A DNA stretch of 32,000 nucleotides, from positions 270,001 to 302,000 of the forward strand of contig NC_009776.1 in assembly GCF_000017945.1 (NCBI RefSeq), written 5' to 3'. Positions 12,698-21,015 of this stretch are shown here, piece after piece (the first letter of the stretch is position 1; every line of letters starts with the position of its first letter). This DNA is from Ignicoccus hospitalis KIN4/I. GTDB lineage: Archaea; Thermoproteota; Thermoprotei_A; Sulfolobales; Ignicoccaceae. The notes under the pieces were generated by a model. The model saw nothing but the letters and a program-made list of their open reading frames with translations. It did not search any database and had not been told where the DNA came from. A program made the position numbers and the translations under genes.

Positions 12698-14269
12698 TTG
12701 AAGGCGCTGGTAATATCTACGTGGGGCAACTCTAGAGCGTGGGAAAGGGTCACCTATCGCCCGGACGACCATTTGAAGGATGCCCTTGAGGACGTCCTGG
12801 AACAAGAAGTCACCTCATGTAATGTGCTGAAGCTCTTCAAAAAAGAGAATACGAGAAAAGTCGTGCTCCTACCGATATCCCTTCTCGACGAAAAAGCGAA
12901 TGATCTCAAAGAGGCAGAGGACAAGATAAAGGAAACTGTAGTTACATCGAACGAGAACGACGACTGCAGAAAAGATCTAAAAGAAATCTTGAACAGCTCC
13001 GAAGTCAAAATCGTTCTTGGGAGTGGAACTTTCCTCTCGAATAAGGTCATAAAAAAGTTTGAGGTTCCGTTCAACACCGTGTTAAGCGACCTATACTTGA
13101 AACTCTACGAGAGCTTGAAGGAAGAGTACAAGCGTGCGGAGGAAGAACTCGAGGTTATTTTAGACATAACTCACGGAGTTAACTACTACCCCGTAAGCTC
13201 CAGAGCTATACTCGAGAAGCTCTTAGCAGTTATGAGTCACAGAGGAAAGAGTAGGCTTTACGTCGCTTCGAGCGACCCCTTCGTGCGCGGCCGAGGGGGC
13301 TCTGTGAAAGAGACCATGAATCTCGAGTACCACTTAATCGAGAAGAAGGCGTTTCCCAAAAACGCGTTCCTAACCTTGGCAATAGATATAGAGTTTAAAA
13401 ACGTGGTAAAGGGAAAAAGCGAGATAAATGACGAGTTGGAAGAATTGAAGAAGATCAAAAAATACATAGGATTGTTAAGCGTACCGAGCCTCCTCGCGTG
13501 GAGCTACCTCAAATACGTACTGGAGAACAACAACGCCATAAAGAAAGCCGAGAACTTGTTACTTAGGATAAGTAAAGAACTTGAGAAATTCTCCATCGAA
13601 GACGACAAGTTCAAATTTAGTGTGGAATTTAATCCAAAAAGCGTGTTTGACTTAATAGCGCTGATCGAAGTAGGCGAAGCCCTCAAGGACTTAAAAGGGG
13701 AGAAGAACTGTGACTTCTTCGCGGTTGAGTTCGATGACTTGAACGCTAGCAACAATAAATATAAGGACCTCATGGAAGATGTATCCAAGCGCTTATGGGA
13801 GAAGGAGTTCAATGACCTAAAATTGACCATTAGATCCTATGAGCGAGTAAAAGAAGAGGCGAGGAGCGCGCTCGAAGAGTTAAAGAACATAGACGACTTG
13901 AGGAACCTCGCCGTGTCCGAGGAGAAGCTGAGGGAAAAGGTAGAAAAAGAAAGCACAGAACGCCTCAAGTGCAAACTGGAGGAACTTCGAAAATACATCA
14001 TGGACGGGTGGCTCCCGTACTCGTTCCTTAGGGTGGGCAGCGAGGTCAGCGGAGGAGGAGAGAGCATACGGAAGAAGCTCCAAGAGGAGGCCCTGTGGTG
14101 GGCCGTGTGGGCCCTCCGTGTCAATAGGGATGACTGTTCGGCTGACGAAGCCACTGTTAGAAACTTCGTAGCTCACGCGGGCTTGGAGATGAACGTAACC
14201 TTCGTGAAAAATGACAAAGTCGCGTACTACCTCCCCTCCCTTGAGTGCATAATAGAGAAATTAACATAA
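12698..14269 (+). CDS. csx1: CRISPR-associated CARF/HEPN ribonuclease Csx1 (DxTHG family)
   Basis: 523-aa ORF with a TTG start. It has the N-terminal ALVISTWGNSRAWERVTY, the DITHG CARF motif at 13163-13177, and the C-terminal HEPN R-x4-H motif RNFVAHAG at 14159-14176. It lies directly upstream of type III effector genes. Confidence 0.85.
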   Translation: MKALVISTWGNSRAWERVTYRPDDHLKDALEDVLEQEVTSCNVLKLFKKENTRKVVLLPISLLDEKANDLKEAEDKIKETVVTSNENDDCRKDLKEILNSSEVKIVLGSGTFLSNKVIKKFEVPFNTVLSDLYLKLYESLKEEYKRAEEELEVILDITHGVNYYPVSSRAILEKLLAVMSHRGKSRLYVASSDPFVRGRGGSVKETMNLEYHLIEKKAFPKNAFLTLAIDIEFKNVVKGKSEINDELEELKKIKKYIGLLSVPSLLAWSYLKYVLENNNAIKKAENLLLRISKELEKFSIEDDKFKFSVEFNPKSVFDLIALIEVGEALKDLKGEKNCDFFAVEFDDLNASNNKYKDLMEDVSKRLWEKEFNDLKLTIRSYERVKEEARSALEELKNIDDLRNLAVSEEKLREKVEKESTERLKCKLEELRKYIMDGWLPYSFLRVGSEVSGGGESIRKKLQEEALWWAVWALRVNRDDCSADEATVRNFVAHAGLEMNVTFVKNDKVAYYLPSLECIIEKLT

Positions 14270-14383
14270 AGAAGTCAACAAGGATTAAACGATCGATTAA
14301 CAGGGGAAAACATAAAAGCCGGCAGCGCTCGGGTTAAGCGTTAAATGCTCTAAAACAGAGCGGCTGACGGGTGTCGACCCTCC

Positions 14384-15220
14384 TTGAAAAAGGACGTCGT
14401 ACCGGCGTTGATGAGCGCCGTCACGCACGTCCACGTCGGCTGGGGGAGGGGACAAGCGGACGTGGACCAACCAATAATTAAGGACCCTATGGGAATACCC
14501 TTCATCCCCGGCTCCTCCGTCAAGGGCGCGCTTAAGACGAAGTTCTTGATAGAGGGCGGGTGCACGTCGAGTTCGAACGGGGGAGAGGGGTACTGCGAGA
14601 AGTGCGCAGAAGTTTGCTGTCTCTTCGGCGGCGAAATGGGAGGAGAGGGGGCGTCCAGAGTGGTCGTAGCGGACTTCTACCCGCTCCTCATCCCAGTGCC
14701 CTCTTTGGACTATGGGTACGTCTACGTAACTTCTGACTCGCTCTTGCAGTACGCAGAATCTTTAGGCATTAAAGTGATTAAGGGAGAGGGTGAGGGCGAG
14801 GAAATATTCGTGGGAACGCAGAAGGTATCTGTTAACGCGGTTCACCTCGATGAACGTGTGGCGCGGCTCCACCCGTTCTTGAAGCGTTTCCTCAGAAGCG
14901 ACAGTGATAAGTATGTAAGGGTATACAAAGTTGACGACGATCATCTGTCCAGATTGGTGGACGCGGCGCTGGTACGGTTAACTAGGGTTAAAGTGGCGAG
15001 GGGCACGAAGACCGTTGAACGCGGCAAGCTCTGGACGGAAGAGTACCTACCCCACGGGACCGTCCTGGCGGGGGCCTTTGTTTACAGGCCTTGGAGGAAC
15101 GTCTACTGCGAGAGGTGTGAGAGGTGTGAGGAAATATGGGAAAGGCTGAAAGACGTTCTGTTGACGATCGGAGGCAAAGAGACTATCGGTAAAGGCTTGG
15201 TTAAGATCACGGCTTTCTGA
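14384..15220 (+). CDS. cmr4: Type III RAMP backbone subunit, Cas7 family, Cmr4-like
   Basis: 278-aa ORF; the start is TTG 14384 or ATG 14411. VTHVHVGWGRGQADVDQPIIKD parallels Pyrococcus Cmr4 THPGSG..VVDQPIQRE, with the Asp at 14465-14467. Also present are IPGSSVKGALK, LFGG...VVVADFYPLLIPVPS and the C-terminal Gly-rich loop GGKETIGKG. Confidence 0.8.
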   Translation: MKKDVVPALMSAVTHVHVGWGRGQADVDQPIIKDPMGIPFIPGSSVKGALKTKFLIEGGCTSSSNGGEGYCEKCAEVCCLFGGEMGGEGASRVVVADFYPLLIPVPSLDYGYVYVTSDSLLQYAESLGIKVIKGEGEGEEIFVGTQKVSVNAVHLDERVARLHPFLKRFLRSDSDKYVRVYKVDDDHLSRLVDAALVRLTRVKVARGTKTVERGKLWTEEYLPHGTVLAGAFVYRPWRNVYCERCERCEEIWERLKDVLLTIGGKETIGKGLVKITAF

Positions 15221-15516
15221 GAAAACGAAAGGACCTCGTCGCAGCTCCTAGAGAAAGTCTTCGCGAGAGCCTCGTTGCCCCGTTCGGTTGAATGAGTACA
15301 TTGAAGAGATAAAACAGCCCTCTAACTCAACGAACGCGAGGGTACAAGGGTTGCCCCACTGGTCCTCGCCGGCCAACGCAACCCATTTCAAATTCCAGAA
15401 AAGGAACTTTAGCGAACCCGTGTTCCAATTAGCTCGCGCGCCTCACGCGGAGTTCCTCGGAACGATTGGGGACCATATGCTTGAAGTAATCGGACGTTCT
15501 CAGAGGGGTAATTAAC

Positions 15517-18500
15517 ATGACGTGTAATAATTTAATAAAGAAAAAGATGGTTGCACTGCTCCACGACACGCCGGAAAAGGCGTGGTTAATGTACGTCAAG
15601 AAGAAACACGAAGAATACGCTAAGGAAAGGATAGGGGACGTCCTTGGAGAGGAATACTTAGACTACTTCAAAGACGTTAAAGCGTACGACGTAATTTCCT
15701 CTACTATAGATAGGTGGGTCGTGCCCTCCCGGATGAACATCGATCGCGTGATTAGGCTGATCAACCCCTTCGACCCCAACTTCTTCTATGAGATCGACTT
15801 GGGGCAAATAAGTAAGGAAAAGATAGAGGATTACTGGAACAAGTTGAAGACGTGTTTGAGCAAGGTAAGTGGTGACAGAGAGAGGTACCACGCCCAGTAC
15901 GTCCTCATGGAGCTGCTGTGGTACAAGACAGTAAAGGTCCCCCTCCCCGCCGACACCAGGTTTCCTACCCACACAGTCTTCGACCACGTATACGCTACCG
16001 CTTCCATGATTAACATCTATAATAACGATAGCAAGAAGTTCTCCGGCTTCATAGTGGGAATAGACATACCGGGCATTCAGAGCTTCATAAGCGGGGGACG
16101 GAGGCCCGGGGACTGGTGGATCAGGAGCTGGTTGATCTCCGCGACCGTGTGGTACTTAATAAAAGAGCTCGTCTGGAACCTCGGGCCGGACGTACTGTTA
16201 AGCCCCAGCGCGCGCTACAACCCCTTCTACTACGCAACGGTAGCGCATAGAGTACAAGCGGTCAGAGAGTGTTTGGACGAGAACCTCACCTCGCCCGAAC
16301 AGCCCTTGATGCCCGCCACAGTTACCTTGCTCCTCCCCGCCTGCAGCATAGAGCTTATGAGGTCTGAACTGGTCGAGAAGGGCTCGCTGAAGGAAGGCGA
16401 AGGAGTTTCCGACCCCTCCGTGATTATAAGCCGGTATTTCAAGGAGAGGTTGAAGGAGGCTTGGAAGAACGTCATTGAAGATATACAGACCCGGTTGCGG
16501 AGCACTGCCGATAATCTAATAAAAACGCTCGAAAAGGTCAGGGTATGTACCGGCACGTGTACCGACGTAGCGTCTGCCGACGATCTTATAGAGAGAATGA
16601 TAGAAATAATAAAGCATGCGGAGAGAGCTCCCTTCGACGTTAAAACTGTAGTTATAAACCTAGAAGAGGCCTTTGAGGAATTCGTCAAAGAGTTCAGAAG
16701 GATAGAAGGGAAAATGAGAGCTGAATTGGAGCAACTTATAAGCTCCGAAGGCTTAGCCGTAGGAAAGGACGTATTCCCCTACTCCAAGGACCTTAGCGAC
16801 GTGATGAGTGACTTAGAGAAGAAGCTGTTCTTCCACTGGCTAGTTACCAAGAAGTATCCCGAAGAGTTCCGCAAAGCGAAGGCCGTCCGCTTAGACCCGC
16901 TGCTCCTGGACGGTTGGACGCTAGAGGTCACTAAAGCTAGGTATGAGAGCTGTAAGGACAAGTCCGCGCCCATGTGTACTTGTGGCAGGCCCGCGGCTGT
17001 TCATAACCCGTCTGAGGCCTCGAGCCCCCTACTTAGGTCGCACGAGGCCCTCTGTCCTTACTGTTTGATCTTACGGTTGTTACAATATTACACCGATGCG
17101 TTGACCTCCATAGTGGAAGCCGACCACGTCAAGGCTCCAAAGGTCGTAATGTCCACGTTGGCAGCCTTGCCGGAGCTGGTCAAGTGGCTTTCCGAGTCTG
17201 GAGGAGCGGTTGAGATAATGGATGAAAATGGAAATAATGTGGGGTTGCCGAAGGACCAGCTCTTAGAGAGCTTGACGAGGAGCCTCAAGGAATATAGCTC
17301 TTTCGACTTCTATCAGAATAAGTATTCCCGTTTTAGCTTGGAGGAGGTCTTGGAAGAGCTGCAGAAAAACGAGACGGTGGAGAGACTCATAAGGGACGAT
17401 TCTAAGAACTTGTACATACGAGTTCTTGTACGTAAGGACAGAGACTCGAGCAAGTTGCTCTCTCTGAACAAGTACATAGCTATGGTAAAAGCTGACGCGG
17501 ACAACATGGGTAACCTCAAAGGGGGCAGGCTCGGTTACGATGCCGAAGCTTACTTTGAAACGATATATAGACAAGCCGGACCTCGGCGAGGGGTCGGTCA
17601 AGAGGAGAAGCTGTATAAACTTGCTGGCTCGTTAGTAAGGAGCGTAATAGAAAGGCTACATGAAATATATCCGAAAGAGGTCTACGGGGAGAACGACTCG
17701 TCCTTGCCCACAGTCTTGGTCACGCCCACATACTTGTTCCAACTCTCTTACTCCTTAATGACGGAAGCGCTAGTAGATAAGGAGATAGTAGAAAAGAATT
17801 ACGGCCTATTAGTGTTTGCCGGAGGGGACGACCTCCTAGCCTTGGTTCCGGCGAGAAGCGTCTCGAGGGGTTCGGGACGCGCGGAACCCCTCGGAGGTCT
17901 AGAGGAATTCCTCTCTCGGGAGTTGCTAGAAATTGTGAAGGAGTTCTACTTCTCCCCCGCGCTCTGGGTTTGGTGGTTGACCCGGCTCAACCACTGGGGA
18001 CTGCTCCGCAGTCCCGTCGGCTTCCGATATACAGACAACTTCTTCGCCCCGGCCTTGTTGGCATACGGGAGGAGCTACGGAATAGCAATAAGGCACTACC
18101 GCGACCCGCTGGCCAAGGTCTTTGAGGACGCGAGCGAACTGGAAGAAAGCGCGAAGAACGTATCTAAAAAGAAGGACGGTGTAGGAGTGAGCTACGGGCG
18201 CTTAGGGGCGAGGGGGGTCGCTCTGTCGAACTCGCTGGGCGTCGAAGACAAGGGGGACCTAAAGGAACCCGCTTCATTGGGTCCCATTATAGCCAAACTC
18301 TCATCCTTCCATCGCCGCGGGCTGAGCAATAATTTCTACTATGATATCGTGAGGGAGTTGCAGAAGTACTTTGGTCACGACGCGAAACACGAGTGGGCTG
18401 CAGCGAAAGGGCTCACCACACCCATCATAATATTGTTGAAATATATAATTAGTAGGAACGTGGCAGACGAGGAGAAGTATTCGCAAAACCTAAAGAAGGA

Positions 18501-18594
18501 GGTCGAGGAAGTCTTAGAGTTCTTGAAGCTCACAAATGAGTATATTTTTGATGTGTTGGAGTTCGGCTTTGCGTGGCACAAGGCCGTGAGGTGA
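15517..18594 (+). CDS. cas10: Cas10 large subunit, Cmr2-type
   Basis: 1025-aa ORF. It carries ALLHDTPEKAW (HD at 15562-15567), ADTRFPTHTVFDH, IPGIQSFISGGRRPGDWWIRSWLIS, the Zn module CTCG...CPYC and KADADNMG (17494-17502). The cyclase motif GGDD is at 17821-17832, followed by SYGIAIRHYRDPL. Confidence 0.9.
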   Translation: MTCNNLIKKKMVALLHDTPEKAWLMYVKKKHEEYAKERIGDVLGEEYLDYFKDVKAYDVISSTIDRWVVPSRMNIDRVIRLINPFDPNFFYEIDLGQISKEKIEDYWNKLKTCLSKVSGDRERYHAQYVLMELLWYKTVKVPLPADTRFPTHTVFDHVYATASMINIYNNDSKKFSGFIVGIDIPGIQSFISGGRRPGDWWIRSWLISATVWYLIKELVWNLGPDVLLSPSARYNPFYYATVAHRVQAVRECLDENLTSPEQPLMPATVTLLLPACSIELMRSELVEKGSLKEGEGVSDPSVIISRYFKERLKEAWKNVIEDIQTRLRSTADNLIKTLEKVRVCTGTCTDVASADDLIERMIEIIKHAERAPFDVKTVVINLEEAFEEFVKEFRRIEGKMRAELEQLISSEGLAVGKDVFPYSKDLSDVMSDLEKKLFFHWLVTKKYPEEFRKAKAVRLDPLLLDGWTLEVTKARYESCKDKSAPMCTCGRPAAVHNPSEASSPLLRSHEALCPYCLILRLLQYYTDALTSIVEADHVKAPKVVMSTLAALPELVKWLSESGGAVEIMDENGNNVGLPKDQLLESLTRSLKEYSSFDFYQNKYSRFSLEEVLEELQKNETVERLIRDDSKNLYIRVLVRKDRDSSKLLSLNKYIAMVKADADNMGNLKGGRLGYDAEAYFETIYRQAGPRRGVGQEEKLYKLAGSLVRSVIERLHEIYPKEVYGENDSSLPTVLVTPTYLFQLSYSLMTEALVDKEIVEKNYGLLVFAGGDDLLALVPARSVSRGSGRAEPLGGLEEFLSRELLEIVKEFYFSPALWVWWLTRLNHWGLLRSPVGFRYTDNFFAPALLAYGRSYGIAIRHYRDPLAKVFEDASELEESAKNVSKKKDGVGVSYGRLGARGVALSNSLGVEDKGDLKEPASLGPIIAKLSSFHRRGLSNNFYYDIVRELQKYFGHDAKHEWAAAKGLTTPIIILLKYIISRNVADEEKYSQNLKKEVEEVLEFLKLTNEYIFDVLEFGFAWHKAVR

Positions 18595-18600
18595 GCGGCG

Positions 18601-19665
18601 GTGATAGCGATAGAGCCCCTCAGCTTCGTGAGCTTCAGGAAGCCCGGCCCTTTCGGACTGACCCAGCGAGGCCCCCTGTCCACGAGCTCTACGTACTTCG
18701 CGAAGACCACCGCGCTGGTGGGGTTGTTGGCTTACTTGGCCTACTCCAAAGGCTTCGAGTGTGAGGCTGAAGGCCTCTTCGAGGCCACTAAGAAGTGCGT
18801 AGGGCAGTGCTTCAAGGGAAGCTTGCGAGGGCCTTACGTCTTGCACCGAGACTCCTCTTGTTTATACTTCGGCGAGGAGAACTTGTTCAACCTAACGGTT
18901 CTCTTCGAAAAGTGGAACGAAATTAAGACGGCAGTGAAGAAGTACTTAGAGGGGGAAGCGGAGTTAGGGAGGAAGAAAAAGGGAATAATCGATTACTTCA
19001 CGACCCCCTCATACAATGAGGCCCTTGCGGGAGGGAGTAGCCCACAAAAGCGCGGGGTGGGTTGGAGAGAGCTCATCTCCCACCAGTTCTCAAACAAGTT
19101 GTCGAGGTCCAAGAAGATGAGTGAGTTCGTTTTCGTAAGGGAAAGGTTCTACGCTAGGAAAGTGGAGATGTTCTTCGAAGTCGGCGAGGTTGAGCCTCGC
19201 TGCCTCGACGACGCGCTATTGCCCCTGGGGGGCGATGGGGGATTAACGAGAGTTGAAGCCAAGGACGTAAATCCCGTAGAAGAGAAATTAAAGGACTTGT
19301 GGGGCGAGTGCTGGGAAGGTTGCGAGGGGGCTCAATCGGTAGTAGTGGTAATATCTCCTCTGATAATGGGTTCCGAGGGCGATTATAGCGACTACAGAAG
19401 GCCCTTCAAAGAGGTCCTCGACTTCGAAGGCGCGTCTAGAGAGTTGTTGCCCCTCTACGATCGCTACACTATCAAGGCGTATCCCTTAGGCTGGGACTTG
19501 ATGAGGGATTGTCCGCGGCCCTTCGTCCCCGCAGTTGCCCCCGGATCGGCCGTCGTGGGGAAGTTGAAGAAACCGCCGAAGGAAATCTACTGGAAAGGGC
19601 TAGGCCTCTTTAGAGACCTCGGTTTCGGGACGGTGCTCCCTCTACCCTTAGACCCGACCACATGA
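18601..19665 (+). CDS. cmr3: Cmr3-like (Cas5 family) type III subunit
   Basis: 354-aa ORF with a GTG start 6 nt after the cas10 stop. The N-terminal IEPLSFVSFRKPGPF......STSSTYFAKTTALVGLL fits the Cmr3 pattern (Dpl.fR...pf...a.s.fP.p.t..Ga). The C-terminal GLGLFRDLGFG is a Gly-rich RAMP loop. Confidence 0.7.
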   Translation: MIAIEPLSFVSFRKPGPFGLTQRGPLSTSSTYFAKTTALVGLLAYLAYSKGFECEAEGLFEATKKCVGQCFKGSLRGPYVLHRDSSCLYFGEENLFNLTVLFEKWNEIKTAVKKYLEGEAELGRKKKGIIDYFTTPSYNEALAGGSSPQKRGVGWRELISHQFSNKLSRSKKMSEFVFVRERFYARKVEMFFEVGEVEPRCLDDALLPLGGDGGLTRVEAKDVNPVEEKLKDLWGECWEGCEGAQSVVVVISPLIMGSEGDYSDYRRPFKEVLDFEGASRELLPLYDRYTIKAYPLGWDLMRDCPRPFVPAVAPGSAVVGKLKKPPKEIYWKGLGLFRDLGFGTVLPLPLDPTT

Positions 19666-19666
19666 C

Positions 19667-19678
19667 TTTTTTGTTGTT
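19667..19678 (+). terminator. Oligo-T tract, a putative archaeal terminator for the csx1-cmr3 gene string
   Basis: TTTTTTGTTGTT begins 2 nt after the cmr3 stop codon (19663-19665). Confidence 0.35.
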
Positions 19679-19753
19679 CATCATAATCAAAAAGCTCAAG
19701 GAACTTCGAATGATTGAAACGTACCGTCCGGAGAACGCTCCCAACCTTTCCAG

Positions 19754-19765
19754 AAAATTTATTAA
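19754..19765 (+). promoter_or_regulatory. Putative BRE/TATA element for tRNA-Gly
   Basis: AAAATTTATTAA is centred about 35 nt upstream of the mature tRNA 5' end at 19795. Confidence 0.4.
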
Positions 19766-19794
19766 CTGACCTAAGGACCCCTTCCCTGGAGGCT

Positions 19795-19873
19795 GCGGCG
19801 GTCGTCTAGCCTGGACTAGGACGCCGGCCTGCCACGCCGGAGATCCCGGGTTCAAATCCCGGCCGCCGCACCA
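19795..19873 (+). tRNA. tRNA-Gly (anticodon GCC) with encoded CCA
   Basis: I folded the cloverleaf by hand. The acceptor is GCGGCGG/CCGCCGC, the D arm GTCT..GGAC, and the anticodon arm CCGGC-CTGCCAC-GCCGG (anticodon GCC). The T arm is CCGGG-TTCAAAT-CCCGG, the discriminator is A, and CCA is at 19871-19873. Confidence 0.95.
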
Positions 19874-19899
19874 ACCCTCCTCTCTTGAAACCCCCTCAA

Positions 19900-20451
19900 G
19901 AGCGCCCGCCCAGGGGCCGCTACAATTTAACTCCTCTCCGTGGGCCCTCGAGGCACTACCTTGCTCGCGCTGGACTACCTCAAGTCCAAGGGCTTTAAGG
20001 TAATCATACCGGAGCTCGGGGTGGGAGACAGGGCTTAGGACCTCCAGCAAGCTAACCTTCCTAACCTCCTCCAAGAGTCCCTTCCACGAGGGGACCCCAC
20101 GAGGCCGTAAACGAAGGCCTTCTCAGCCTTGGTGCGCAAGCTGATAGACGGCACCTCCAACAAGTCCTTGGGCACCCTGTAGCCTAGGGCCTTCAGGGCC
20201 AAGGCTGCCTCGAGCTTGTAGGTTACCCCCAATACCTTGTCTATCAAGTCGTTGGGCTGTTGATCGCTGAGGGCGTGGGGCGGTCCTTCTGGCCCGCGCG
20301 ACGTAAGCCTTTGTATGGCAGGCGCGTCGGTACTCTTACACGACCTTCTTCCAATATTACAAATCACCAAACCTTTGTATTTACTCATTTCCTTTTCATC
20401 TTTGCCCACATGGGAACATCCTATATTCGAAAACGCACCATTACTATTCAC
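19900..20451 (-). pseudogene. Possible decayed, frameshifted ORF between tRNA-Gly and the CRISPR leader; function unknown
   Basis: The GC-rich, coding-like stretch NDLIDKVLGVTYKLEAALALKALGYRVPKDLLEVPSISLRTKAEKAFVYGLVG continues in another frame as PSWKGLLEEVRKVSLLEVLSPVSHPELRYDYLKALGLEVVQ. The switch occurs after a G/C homopolymer patch near 20085-20105. The apparent N-terminus lies in AT-rich, non-coding-looking sequence. Confidence 0.25.
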
Positions 20452-20617
20452 TCTCTCAAACCCCCTTATATCTTTTCATGGGAACGCTGAAGATCGTGGA
20501 GGGAAGGGCAGAGGAAAAATTTCTTGAATAAAGGGAAAAGTTTGGGGAATTGTAAACTCGCAGTAGAACGCAATTCTTTTAAGGGAAAGACCTTGGGGCC
20601 TTATATGGAAGGCTTCG

Positions 20618-20976
20618 GTGGAGTCTCAAGAGAGGATAGAAAGGCTCATCTTCGTGATTTGACAAACTATGGTCAAGTCGAGTAGAGTCTCAAAAGAGGA
20701 TAGAAAGTTCTCTAGCTTTACGATGTTTGAGAAGCTGAGGTAGTTGTCGTGTGGAGTCTCAAAAGAGGATAGAAAGGCATTAATTTCTATGTAATATTCC
20801 TCGTTATTCTCCTTGGTGGAGACTCAAGAGAGGATAGAAAGAACAACATCACCTTAAGCAACTTGTCTATATCATCCTGTGGAGTCTCAAGAGAGGATAG
20901 AAAGTTAGTAATTATTGTGACACTCTTTGTTTCAGGGTCTTTTATGAAGAGTAGAGTCTCAAAAGAGGATAGAAAG
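20618..20976 (+). CRISPR. CRISPR array with 6 repeats of 26 nt and 5 spacers (38, 43, 39, 37 and 46 nt)
   Basis: The repeats lie at 20618-20643, 20682-20707, 20751-20776, 20816-20841, 20879-20904 and 20951-20976. The consensus is GTGGAGTCTCAAGAGAGGATAGAAAG. The + orientation is inferred from the 3'-terminal GAAAG handle and from the AT-rich leader on the left. The right flank is only 39 nt from the pyrG stop. Confidence 0.9.
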
Positions 20977-21015
20977 CCTTCACGGAGGGCCATTCGAGCA
21001 ACGGGAGGAACGGGG

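Follow-up and report, generated by a model that had tools for sequence, protein, structure and literature searches.

A reduced type III CRISPR cassette of four genes in the chromosome of Ignicoccus hospitalis KIN4/I raises the question of whether so small a gene set is a new kind of system or a part of a larger one. The cassette (Igni_0326 to Igni_0329) occupies positions 12698-19665 of the 32-kb stretch of this chromosome that was analyzed here, referred to as the window, in whose coordinates positions are given unless a locus label precedes them. A preliminary description made from the sequence alone had read csx1, a single cmr4, cas10, and cmr3, and had left two explanations: a minimal and possibly undescribed type III variant in which the C-terminal domain of Cas10 might replace the small subunit Cas11, or a satellite cassette dependent on another locus for subunits and Cas6. 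Judged by gene content and orthology, the cassette is not a new minimal CRISPR type; it is a III-B system that has lost cmr5 and cmr6 and is also without the cmr1 of its I. islandicus ortholog. Together with a second module in the same genome, Igni_0460-0464, it looks like one half of a pair that has degenerated reciprocally, as duplication-degeneration-complementation describes. Our tentative preference, which we put slightly short of an even chance, is that the cassette completes its complex with Igni_0461 and Igni_0462 of that module, uses Cas6 in trans, and supplies the cyclic oligoadenylate (cOA)/Csx1 arm of the cell. We rank this borrowing of subunits first, a decaying remnant second, an autonomous effector third, and an alternative head for the other module last. 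The operon is laid out as follows.

12698-14269, + strand: csx1 (Igni_0326), a CARF-HEPN effector
14384-15220, + strand: cmr4 (Igni_0327), the sole Cas7 backbone subunit of the cassette
15221-15516: a non-coding gap of 296 bp, at the position taken by cmr5-cmr6 (~1.5 kb) in relatives
15517-18594, + strand: cas10/cmr2 (Igni_0328), 1025 amino acids (aa)
18601-19665, + strand: cmr3 (Igni_0329), a Cas5-family subunit of 354 aa

Pfam, NCBIfam, and PADLOC profiles bore out the four co-directional open reading frames (ORFs), translation placed every motif named in the preliminary description at the coordinates it had given, and profile typing of the four proteins returned a III-B assignment (TIGRFAM, PADLOC). 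Csx1 matched Pfam Csx1_CARF (127 bits, 1e-36) and Csx1_HEPN, TIGR01897 (115.9 bits), TIGR02549, and the PADLOC Csx1 profile (269.9 bits), and it has the features by which a CARF-HEPN protein is counted as Csx1, among them a DxTHG motif (DITHG, 13163-13177) and an Rx4H motif (RNFVAH, 14159-14176). Its nearest solved structure is that of P. furiosus Csx1 (4EOG), and the product is presumed to be a cOA-activated RNase. Cmr4 scored 151 bits against TIGR02580 (cutoff 87) and 172 bits against PADLOC Cmr4, and it retains the putative slicer aspartate of VDQP (D28, 14465-14467) that is kept in 52 of 54 family Cmr4 sequences. Cas10 matched TIGR02577 (148 bits, cutoff 79.4), Pfam Cmr2_N, and PADLOC Cas10b (III-B), and is 100% identical to the I. 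hospitalis protein that NCBI names 'type III-B CRISPR-associated protein Cas10/Cmr2'; its nearest relatives are all III-B Cas10 proteins, and its nearest solved structure is Cmr2 of the S. islandicus Cmr-beta complex (6S6B). It carries an HD motif (LLHD, 15556-15567; H16 and D17), a Zn cysteine cluster (CxC...CxxC, residues 487-516), and intact Palm motifs (DADNMG, 17494-17511; GGDD, 17821-17832). Cmr3, the partner of Cas10 that holds the 5' tag of the CRISPR RNA (crRNA), gave a weak yet full-length match to TIGR01888 (34.7 bits, under the cutoff) and was recognized by PADLOC Cmr3 (E=5e-10). Positions 14901-19700, gap included, are identical across four independent assemblies, and the architecture is therefore not an assembly artefact.

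The preliminary description had also reported that the 32 kb hold no cmr1, cmr5, cmr6, cas6, or cas1/cas2 and that no credible ORF lies between the genes, and profile searches of the window agree with both statements. Hidden Markov models (HMMs) built here for Cmr1, Cmr5, and Cmr6 produced no new match among window ORFs of at least 60 aa, the Cmr6 and Cmr1 models weakly matching Cmr4 only, and the Cmr5 and Cmr6 profiles, run with filters off against the six-frame translation of the window, matched Cmr4 itself and nothing else. No remnant was returned by tblastn of relatives' Cmr5 (four sequences) and Cmr6 against the gap and the whole window, and Smith-Waterman alignment of the gap, compared with shuffled controls, detected no significant cmr5 or cmr6 remnant; a 28-nt colinear stretch just 5' of cas10 scored 21, with the 95th-percentile shuffle score at 24. 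An Rfam scan of the window found a tRNA alone and no known RNA in the gap. At the end of the gap, immediately before the cas10 ATG, stands a Shine-Dalgarno-like GAGGGG. The sole ORF between cmr4 and cas10 encodes 75 aa (15288-15515) and matches no Pfam, NCBIfam, or PADLOC family. We considered it as a cryptic small subunit and rejected it on the grounds that it has no family match, is unannotated in the published table, and is shorter than the 172-217 aa of relatives' Cmr5.

A small subunit hidden within one of the four proteins was likewise rejected. The alignment of Cas10 with five relatives runs over its full length, the C-terminal helical domain (D4) included, and shows no extra or swapped domain; a separate cmr5 was seen directly in four of these relatives (L002-L005) and lies on a second contig of the same metagenome-assembled genome (MAG) in the fifth (L001). 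Because Cas10 is colinear with relatives that keep Cmr5, it contains no fused Cas11 domain, and the suggestion that its C-terminal domain stands in for Cas11 finds no support in the sequence. Neither Cmr4 (278 aa) nor Cmr3 (354 aa) differs in length from its orthologs, and lengths and alignments together gave no indication of a Cas11 or extra Cas7 domain fused into any protein of the cassette.

The closest relative of the cassette is found in I. islandicus, with identities of 63% for Cmr4, 54% for Cas10, and 58% for Cmr3. The contig of this relative, locus L005, also encodes a protein 100% identical to EYM_01745 of I. islandicus DSM 13165. In that locus (EYM_01745 region), the order is cmr1, two gene fragments, cmr4, cmr5, cmr6, cas10, and cmr3, with Cmr6 recognized by TIGR01898 (76.5 bits, cutoff 51.1) and Cmr1 by PADLOC Cmr1. 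Downstream of cmr3 this locus has three ORFs and then the 5' end of a tRNA-Gly gene, which provides a synteny landmark: window 19795-19824 is 100% identical to L005 12801-12830 over the 30 nt that remain before the contig ends. Read from gene order and profile matches, the I. islandicus locus is the positional ortholog of the cassette and a canonical six-gene III-B system. The pair cmr5 and cmr6 lies between cmr4 and cas10 in L002, L003, L004, and L005; L007 and L074 have cmr5 directly after cmr4 at the point where their contigs end, and L001 begins inside a Cmr1-like fragment and continues with cmr6-cas10-cmr3.

To these we added 66 further crenarchaeal III-B Cas10 loci, annotated by competitive assignment to family HMMs built here; 72 loci had a Cas10 match. 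Both cmr5 and cmr6 are present in 49 of the 72, and the contig is too short to judge in 21. One locus (L019) is without a detectable cmr5 alone, and the window is the only locus without both genes despite more than 5 kb of flank. Metagenome contigs queried with a single protein yielded no relative. By parsimony over the relatives that carry them, cmr5 and cmr6 were thus lost in the I. hospitalis lineage. The cassette is III-B by descent, with a Cmr2-type Cas10, Cmr3, Cmr4, and synteny with complete III-B loci, and it falls short of the III-B gene set by composition, having neither a module-encoded Cmr5 (Cas11) nor the capping repeat-associated mysterious proteins (RAMPs) Cmr6 and Cmr1. This is the state of a single lineage and not a subtype, and the proposal of a minimal, undescribed type III variant does not survive the comparison, the architecture being a singleton whose positional ortholog and assessable relatives carry cmr5 and cmr6.

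The second module of I. hospitalis (locus L004) comprises Igni_0460-0464 in the order cmr4-cmr5-cmr6-cas10-cmr3. It shares with the cassette the order cmr4...cas10-cmr3, a similar leader and repeat family, and a presence in published proteomics; the proteins of the two modules are 42-53% identical overall (53% for Cmr4 and Igni_0460, 46% for Cmr3 and Igni_0464). The paralogous module differs in keeping cmr5 and cmr6, in the TVD and SGGE motifs of its Cas10, in having no adjacent csx1, and in a GC content of 61% compared to 51%. According to the annotation table of I. hospitalis, the genome holds two Cas10 genes, one Cmr5, and one Cmr6, the only annotated Cmr5 being Igni_0461 and the only annotated Cmr6 Igni_0462, as well as a I-A/adaptation locus (Igni_1132-1141) and a Cas6-like RAMP, Igni_1151 (Giannone et al. 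2011, PMC3149612). When the I. islandicus Cmr1 was used to look for a counterpart in I. hospitalis, the only matches came from I. islandicus itself and from a single metagenomic protein. An ordinary split III-B system, in which the missing genes elsewhere would simply belong to the same complex, was rejected, because the partner locus is complete and carries its own cmr4, cas10, and cmr3. As for the satellite explanation, its premise holds, in that another module with cmr5 and cmr6 and an annotated Cas6-like RAMP exist; the borrowing itself is a proposal.

In the Cas10 of the second module, Igni_0463 (L004 12358-15309), TVD replaces DAD and SGGE replaces GGDD. Among 60 full-length family Cas10 proteins, GGDD is present in 59, the window's included, and Igni_0463 is the sole exception; it is also the only one without the first aspartate of DxD, and with 85% of conserved columns kept it ranks 57th of the 60. 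By its motifs, Igni_0463 is a III-C-like inactivated cyclase inside the III-B clade. Subtype III-C is Cmr-like with an inactivated Cas10 cyclase (PMC12669027), a trait displayed by Igni_0463 and not by the window Cas10. No csx1 or other CARF gene adjoins Igni_0460-0464, and the only annotated Csx1 of I. hospitalis adjoins the cyclase-competent Cas10. With its cyclase residues lost and no CARF gene adjacent, the paralogous module would give only RNA, and possibly DNA, cleavage. The sole cyclase-dead Cas10 and the sole locus without cmr5 and cmr6 in the sample therefore share one genome, and such reciprocal defects are the pattern predicted by duplication-degeneration-complementation if the modules share parts. 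The III-B annotation of the cassette genes dates from the publication of the genome, and their operon was already named Iho0326-0329 by Giannone et al. (2011) (PMC3149612). A literature search by Igni_ locus tags turned up no mention of Igni_0326-0329 or Igni_0463, and no paper was found on the reduced composition of the cassette or on the dead cyclase of its paralog.

The two modules are also connected through their CRISPR arrays. Downstream of cmr3 the window contains the following features, of which the array with its leader (20392-20976) and the tRNA gene went unmentioned in the finding of the preliminary description, while the oligo-T end of the operon that it had reported was found directly after the cmr3 stop.

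19666-19678, + strand: T-rich tract CTTTTTTGTTGTT, directly after the cmr3 stop, read from the sequence
19795-19873, + strand: tRNA-Gly(GCC), found by ARAGORN and Rfam
20392-20617, + strand: CRISPR leader, overlapping the annotated ORF Igni_0330
20618-20976, + strand: mini CRISPR array with 6 repeats and 5 spacers

The tract CTTTTTTGTTGTT likely functions as the archaeal terminator of the operon. The array shares the strand of the cas genes and is built of six slightly degenerate 26-nt repeats, GTRGAGWCTCAARAGAGGATAGAAAG, and five spacers of 37-46 nt; the predicted crRNA 5' tag is AUAGAAAG. Its leader of ~225 bp is about 92.5% identical, over 252 bp that include the first repeat, to L004 18558-18809 beside the second module. 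The array at L004 has ~12 repeats of a family common to the window array, and it was found by blastn and repeat search, having been missed by Tandem Repeats Finder at a score of at least 50. The GC content of the five spacers, which span 20644-20950, is 30-42%, in a host region of ~59%; the genome of the obligate symbiont N. equitans is very AT-rich. Spacer 24-mers from all five had no match in IMG/VR, and no spacer match with up to 8 mismatches was present in the window or any fetched locus. The CRISPR repeat gave 0 matches in a collection of genome contigs that apparently does not include Ignicoccus, a Cas10 scan of it having likewise yielded no genome of that genus. The annotated ORF Igni_0330 (20035-20451, minus strand, 138 aa) overlaps the conserved leader, has no family match, and was never detected in proteomics, and for these reasons it is probably not a real gene.

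Subunit borrowing would join these observations into the following mechanism. The cassette would not be self-sufficient, and what remains of it is a Cas10-Cmr3 'foot' with HD motif and cyclase site intact, one Cmr4, Csx1, and a small array with its own leader. The Cas6 of the genome would first cut crRNAs from the window array and its sister arrays. Cas10-Cmr3-Cmr4 would then assemble on a AUAGAAAG-tagged crRNA together with Cmr5 (Igni_0461) and Cmr6 (Igni_0462), binding of target RNA would turn on the GGDD cyclase of Igni_0328, and the cyclic oligoadenylate would activate the Csx1 RNase. We infer the physical sharing of Cmr5 and Cmr6, the supply of Cas6 in trans, the synthesis of cOA, and the activation of Csx1. 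In favor of this reading, along with the descent and loss, the lack of any compensating change, the signs of continued use, the reciprocal defects, and the biochemical precedent for the missing parts, the donor Cmr5 and Cmr6 are annotated and expressed in the same genome, and the arrays at both loci share a leader and repeat family, that is, a shared RNA supply.

Work on other type III complexes bears on whether the cassette could dispense with such help. In P. furiosus, Cmr2-5 are each required for crRNA binding, and Cmr1 and Cmr6 for target RNA capture (PMC4215187). The L. lactis Csm complex without Cas11 also loses its cap subunit; the resulting complex is stable, with severe RNA-cleavage defects, makes little cOA, and confers no immunity (PMC8964682). 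Given these requirements, a stand-alone Cas10-Cmr3-Cmr4 complex is unlikely to work well. The engineered L. lactis delta-Csm2 III-A complex, a laboratory deletion without Cas11 and the Csm5 cap, has the same composition as the cassette alone, and because it holds together yet has almost no activity and gives no protection (PMC8964682), the cassette would need outside help. We accordingly regard it as improbable that Cas10-Cmr3-(Cmr4)n-crRNA acts alone, with neither Cas11 nor a cap, senses target RNA, and makes cOA that activates Csx1. The cassette would in that case be a III-B system streamlined by nature. Such autonomy would suit a compact operon with its own array, leader, and effector, intact catalytic motifs, and expressed proteins; natural effectors of Cas10, Cas5, and Cas7 are known in III-H (PMC12669027), and L. 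lactis Csm without Csm2 does remain stable and keep low cOA synthesis (PMC8964682). However, no compensating change is evident in the cassette, its Cas10 D4 region being colinear with orthologs that use Cmr5, in contrast with the fused Cas11 of III-H. Moreover, P. furiosus Cmr2-3-4 without Cmr5 binds no crRNA, and complexes without Cmr6 or Cmr1 capture no target (PMC4215187). The architecture is conserved in no relative, and the same cell expresses a Cmr5 and a Cmr6 that could readily be drawn upon.

Published shotgun proteomics detected all nine Cmr/Csx1 proteins, four from the cassette and five from Igni_0460-0464 (PMC3149612), so that a lack of expression, which the preliminary description had named as one way in which its claim could fail, does not apply to the cassette. 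The ASpC values in pure culture and co-culture were 13/6 for Csx1, 52/22 for Cmr4, 145/106 for Cas10, and 43/42 for Cmr3, normalized counts for Igni_0460-0464 were ~1.3- to 5-fold above those of the cassette, and the adaptation genes Igni_1132-1135, Cas3 (Igni_1137), and the Cas6-like Igni_1151 were undetected (PMC3149612). Length-normalized Cmr4:Cmr5:Cmr6:Cas10:Cmr3 for Igni_0460-0464 is ~3.9:1.8:1.3:1:0.6, and the nSpC ratio of Cmr4 to Cas10 is ~1.3:1 for the cassette compared to ~3.9:1 for the paralog (Table S1, PMC3149612).

These ratios bring in an arrangement that we rank last and consider quite unlikely, in which Cas10-Cmr3 (Igni_0328/0329) docks as an alternative head on the paralog's Cmr4-Cmr5-Cmr6 body and the local cmr4 is redundant. 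The ratio within Igni_0460-0464 is near the canonical Cmr stoichiometry known from structural studies. With local Cmr4 at ~1.3 per Cas10, and Igni_0460, Igni_0461, and Igni_0462 at ~3.9, 1.8, and 1.3 per Igni_0463 (nSpC), the ratios pooled over both loci are compatible with sharing. Nevertheless, the local Cmr4 retains its catalytic aspartate and 42 of the 45 conserved columns, and spectral counts are only semi-quantitative.

Conservation was assessed for Cmr4 and Cas10, and bears on the main rival of subunit borrowing, a decaying remnant. The window Cmr4 retains 93% of family-conserved columns (42 of 45, a column being conserved at 80% or more; family median 96%), and the window Cas10 94% (85 of 90; family median 94%). 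A relative-rate test against the I. islandicus ortholog, with Igni_0460-0464 as outgroup, showed no acceleration of the window lineage, with the caveat that the outgroup has the base composition of the host, which biases the test toward no acceleration. Under the remnant explanation, which we think doubtful although it comes second, cmr5, cmr6, and cmr1 have been deleted, the genes still expressed contribute little or nothing, and the cell relies on Igni_0460-0464 and its I-A system. It fits a singleton architecture among ~50 assessable relatives, the loss of subunits that are essential in characterised systems (PMC4215187, PMC8964682), an abundance below that of the paralogous module with an atypical Cmr4:Cas10 ratio, a module GC content of 51% compared to 59% that is compositionally not fully at home, and an array with just five spacers and slightly degenerate repeats. 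It is less easily reconciled with four intact ORFs that preserve all catalytic motifs, with retention of conserved columns equal to that of orthologs from complete loci and no rate acceleration, or with the detection of the cassette proteins. The gap shows no trace of the lost genes, which in a decayed residue would mean a long time during which the flanking genes stayed intact. Finally, since the other Cas10 lacks GGDD, decay would leave an intact, expressed Csx1 without an activating cyclase.

Several points nonetheless weigh against the borrowing of subunits that we favor. Binding of Igni_0461 and Igni_0462 to Igni_0327-0329 would join partners from paralogous sets that are only 42-53% identical and whose interfaces may not be compatible. 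The Cmr4:Cas10 ratio of the cassette is unlike a canonical 4:1 backbone made from its own Cmr4, and of its four proteins Csx1 has the lowest counts (ASpC 13/6). The deletion might also be recent, in which case intact ORFs and normal conservation would be poor guides to what the cassette does now. A divergent small subunit, or a Cmr1, encoded elsewhere is excluded only by the published annotation and one sequence search.

Compared with the canonical III-B systems of Thermoproteota (I. islandicus, S. islandicus Cmr-beta 6S6B) and with P. furiosus Cmr, the cassette has orthologous Cas10/Cmr2, Cmr3, and Cmr4, the HD, Zn-cluster, GGDD, and Cmr4 aspartate motifs, and an 8-nt ...GAAAG crRNA tag in common with them. 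An adjacent Csx1 is common in relatives too, the survey having returned 23 csx1-like matches. The cassette differs in being without cmr5, cmr6, and cmr1, a state found in no adequately flanked relative surveyed. The preliminary description had set the cassette against III-F, a subtype in which a single Cas7 accompanies Cas10 and Cas5, with a separate Cas11 and a degenerate cyclase. That comparison stands insofar as the single Cas7 is alike and the cassette differs in having no Cas11, an intact cyclase, and proteins that match III-B models; the known subtype composed of Cas10, Cas5, and a single Cas7 is, however, III-H. In III-H, a diverged Cas11 replaces the C-terminal domain of Cas10, the Palm is inactive, and a cOA pathway is missing; the Cas7 aspartate is unconserved, no CARF effector is present, and the subtype, distantly related to III-F, stands as a clade by itself in the tree of Cas10 proteins (Makarova et al. 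2025, PMC12669027). The cassette resembles III-H in having Cas10, Cas5, and just one Cas7 gene and in carrying no adaptation module, but its full-length Cmr2 with GGDD and DxD, retained Cmr4 aspartate, and attached Csx1 are not III-H traits.

If reciprocal degeneration is the correct explanation, two paralogous type III modules would have become dependent on each other, one keeping the Cmr5/Cmr6 body with a dead cyclase and the other keeping the cyclase and Csx1 with the body lost. Known sharing between CRISPR systems concerns crRNAs, Cas6, or adaptation genes, and to our knowledge there is no earlier natural case of structural subunits shared between type III complexes. Cas10-Cmr3 'heads' would then be exchangeable on a common Cmr4/5/6 scaffold, which would be relevant to the engineering of type III sensors. 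The system is a testable one, with a 1.3-Mb genome and all nine proteins already detected. An autonomous cassette would instead rank as the smallest signalling-competent multi-subunit type III effector in nature and would contradict the subunit requirements of P. furiosus Cmr and L. lactis Csm. A cassette that is simply in decay would be a partial III-B locus of the ordinary kind, of value mainly as a caution against naming subtypes from single reduced loci.

Outside the cassette, the window contains housekeeping genes or ORFs without a Pfam match, with ALAD, AIM24, CTP synthase, radical-SAM proteins, phosphoenolpyruvate carboxylase, and Pus10 among the products. The cas module as a whole has a GC content of 51% (csx1 46%), compared to 59% for the window without 12698-21000; the values are 61% for the paralogous module and 41% for the I. 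islandicus ortholog. The lower GC content may reflect a later transfer from a low-GC Ignicoccus lineage into the site adjacent to tRNA-Gly, rather than vertical descent.

The survey loci gave some further observations on gene content. The I. islandicus locus has two short ORFs between cmr1 and cmr4 (L005 1728-3030), one for a fragment of a P-loop ATPase and the other for the C-terminal portion of an adenosine deaminase. Both match the RADAR models RdrA and RdrB weakly and may be what is left of a defence or ancillary gene based on a deaminase. One contig (L011 1-6500), which lacks its upstream side, holds a cut cmr4, cas10, cmr3, and a CRISPR array, and another, from the MAG Thermoproteota archaeon L_MaxBin.140 (L050 2552-5693), has a divergent cmr4-cmr5-cmr1-cmr6 operon beside a second cmr4-cas10. 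With cmr4 immediately upstream of cas10 in both, a cmr4-cas10-cmr3 sub-operon may recur in L011 and L050, a loss of cmr5 and cmr6 being seen on neither contig. In the metagenomic locus L002 (9122-10001), cmr6 is divided into two ORFs of 120 and 165 aa, by a frameshift or a sequencing error, and this split hints at decay of cmr6 in that lineage.

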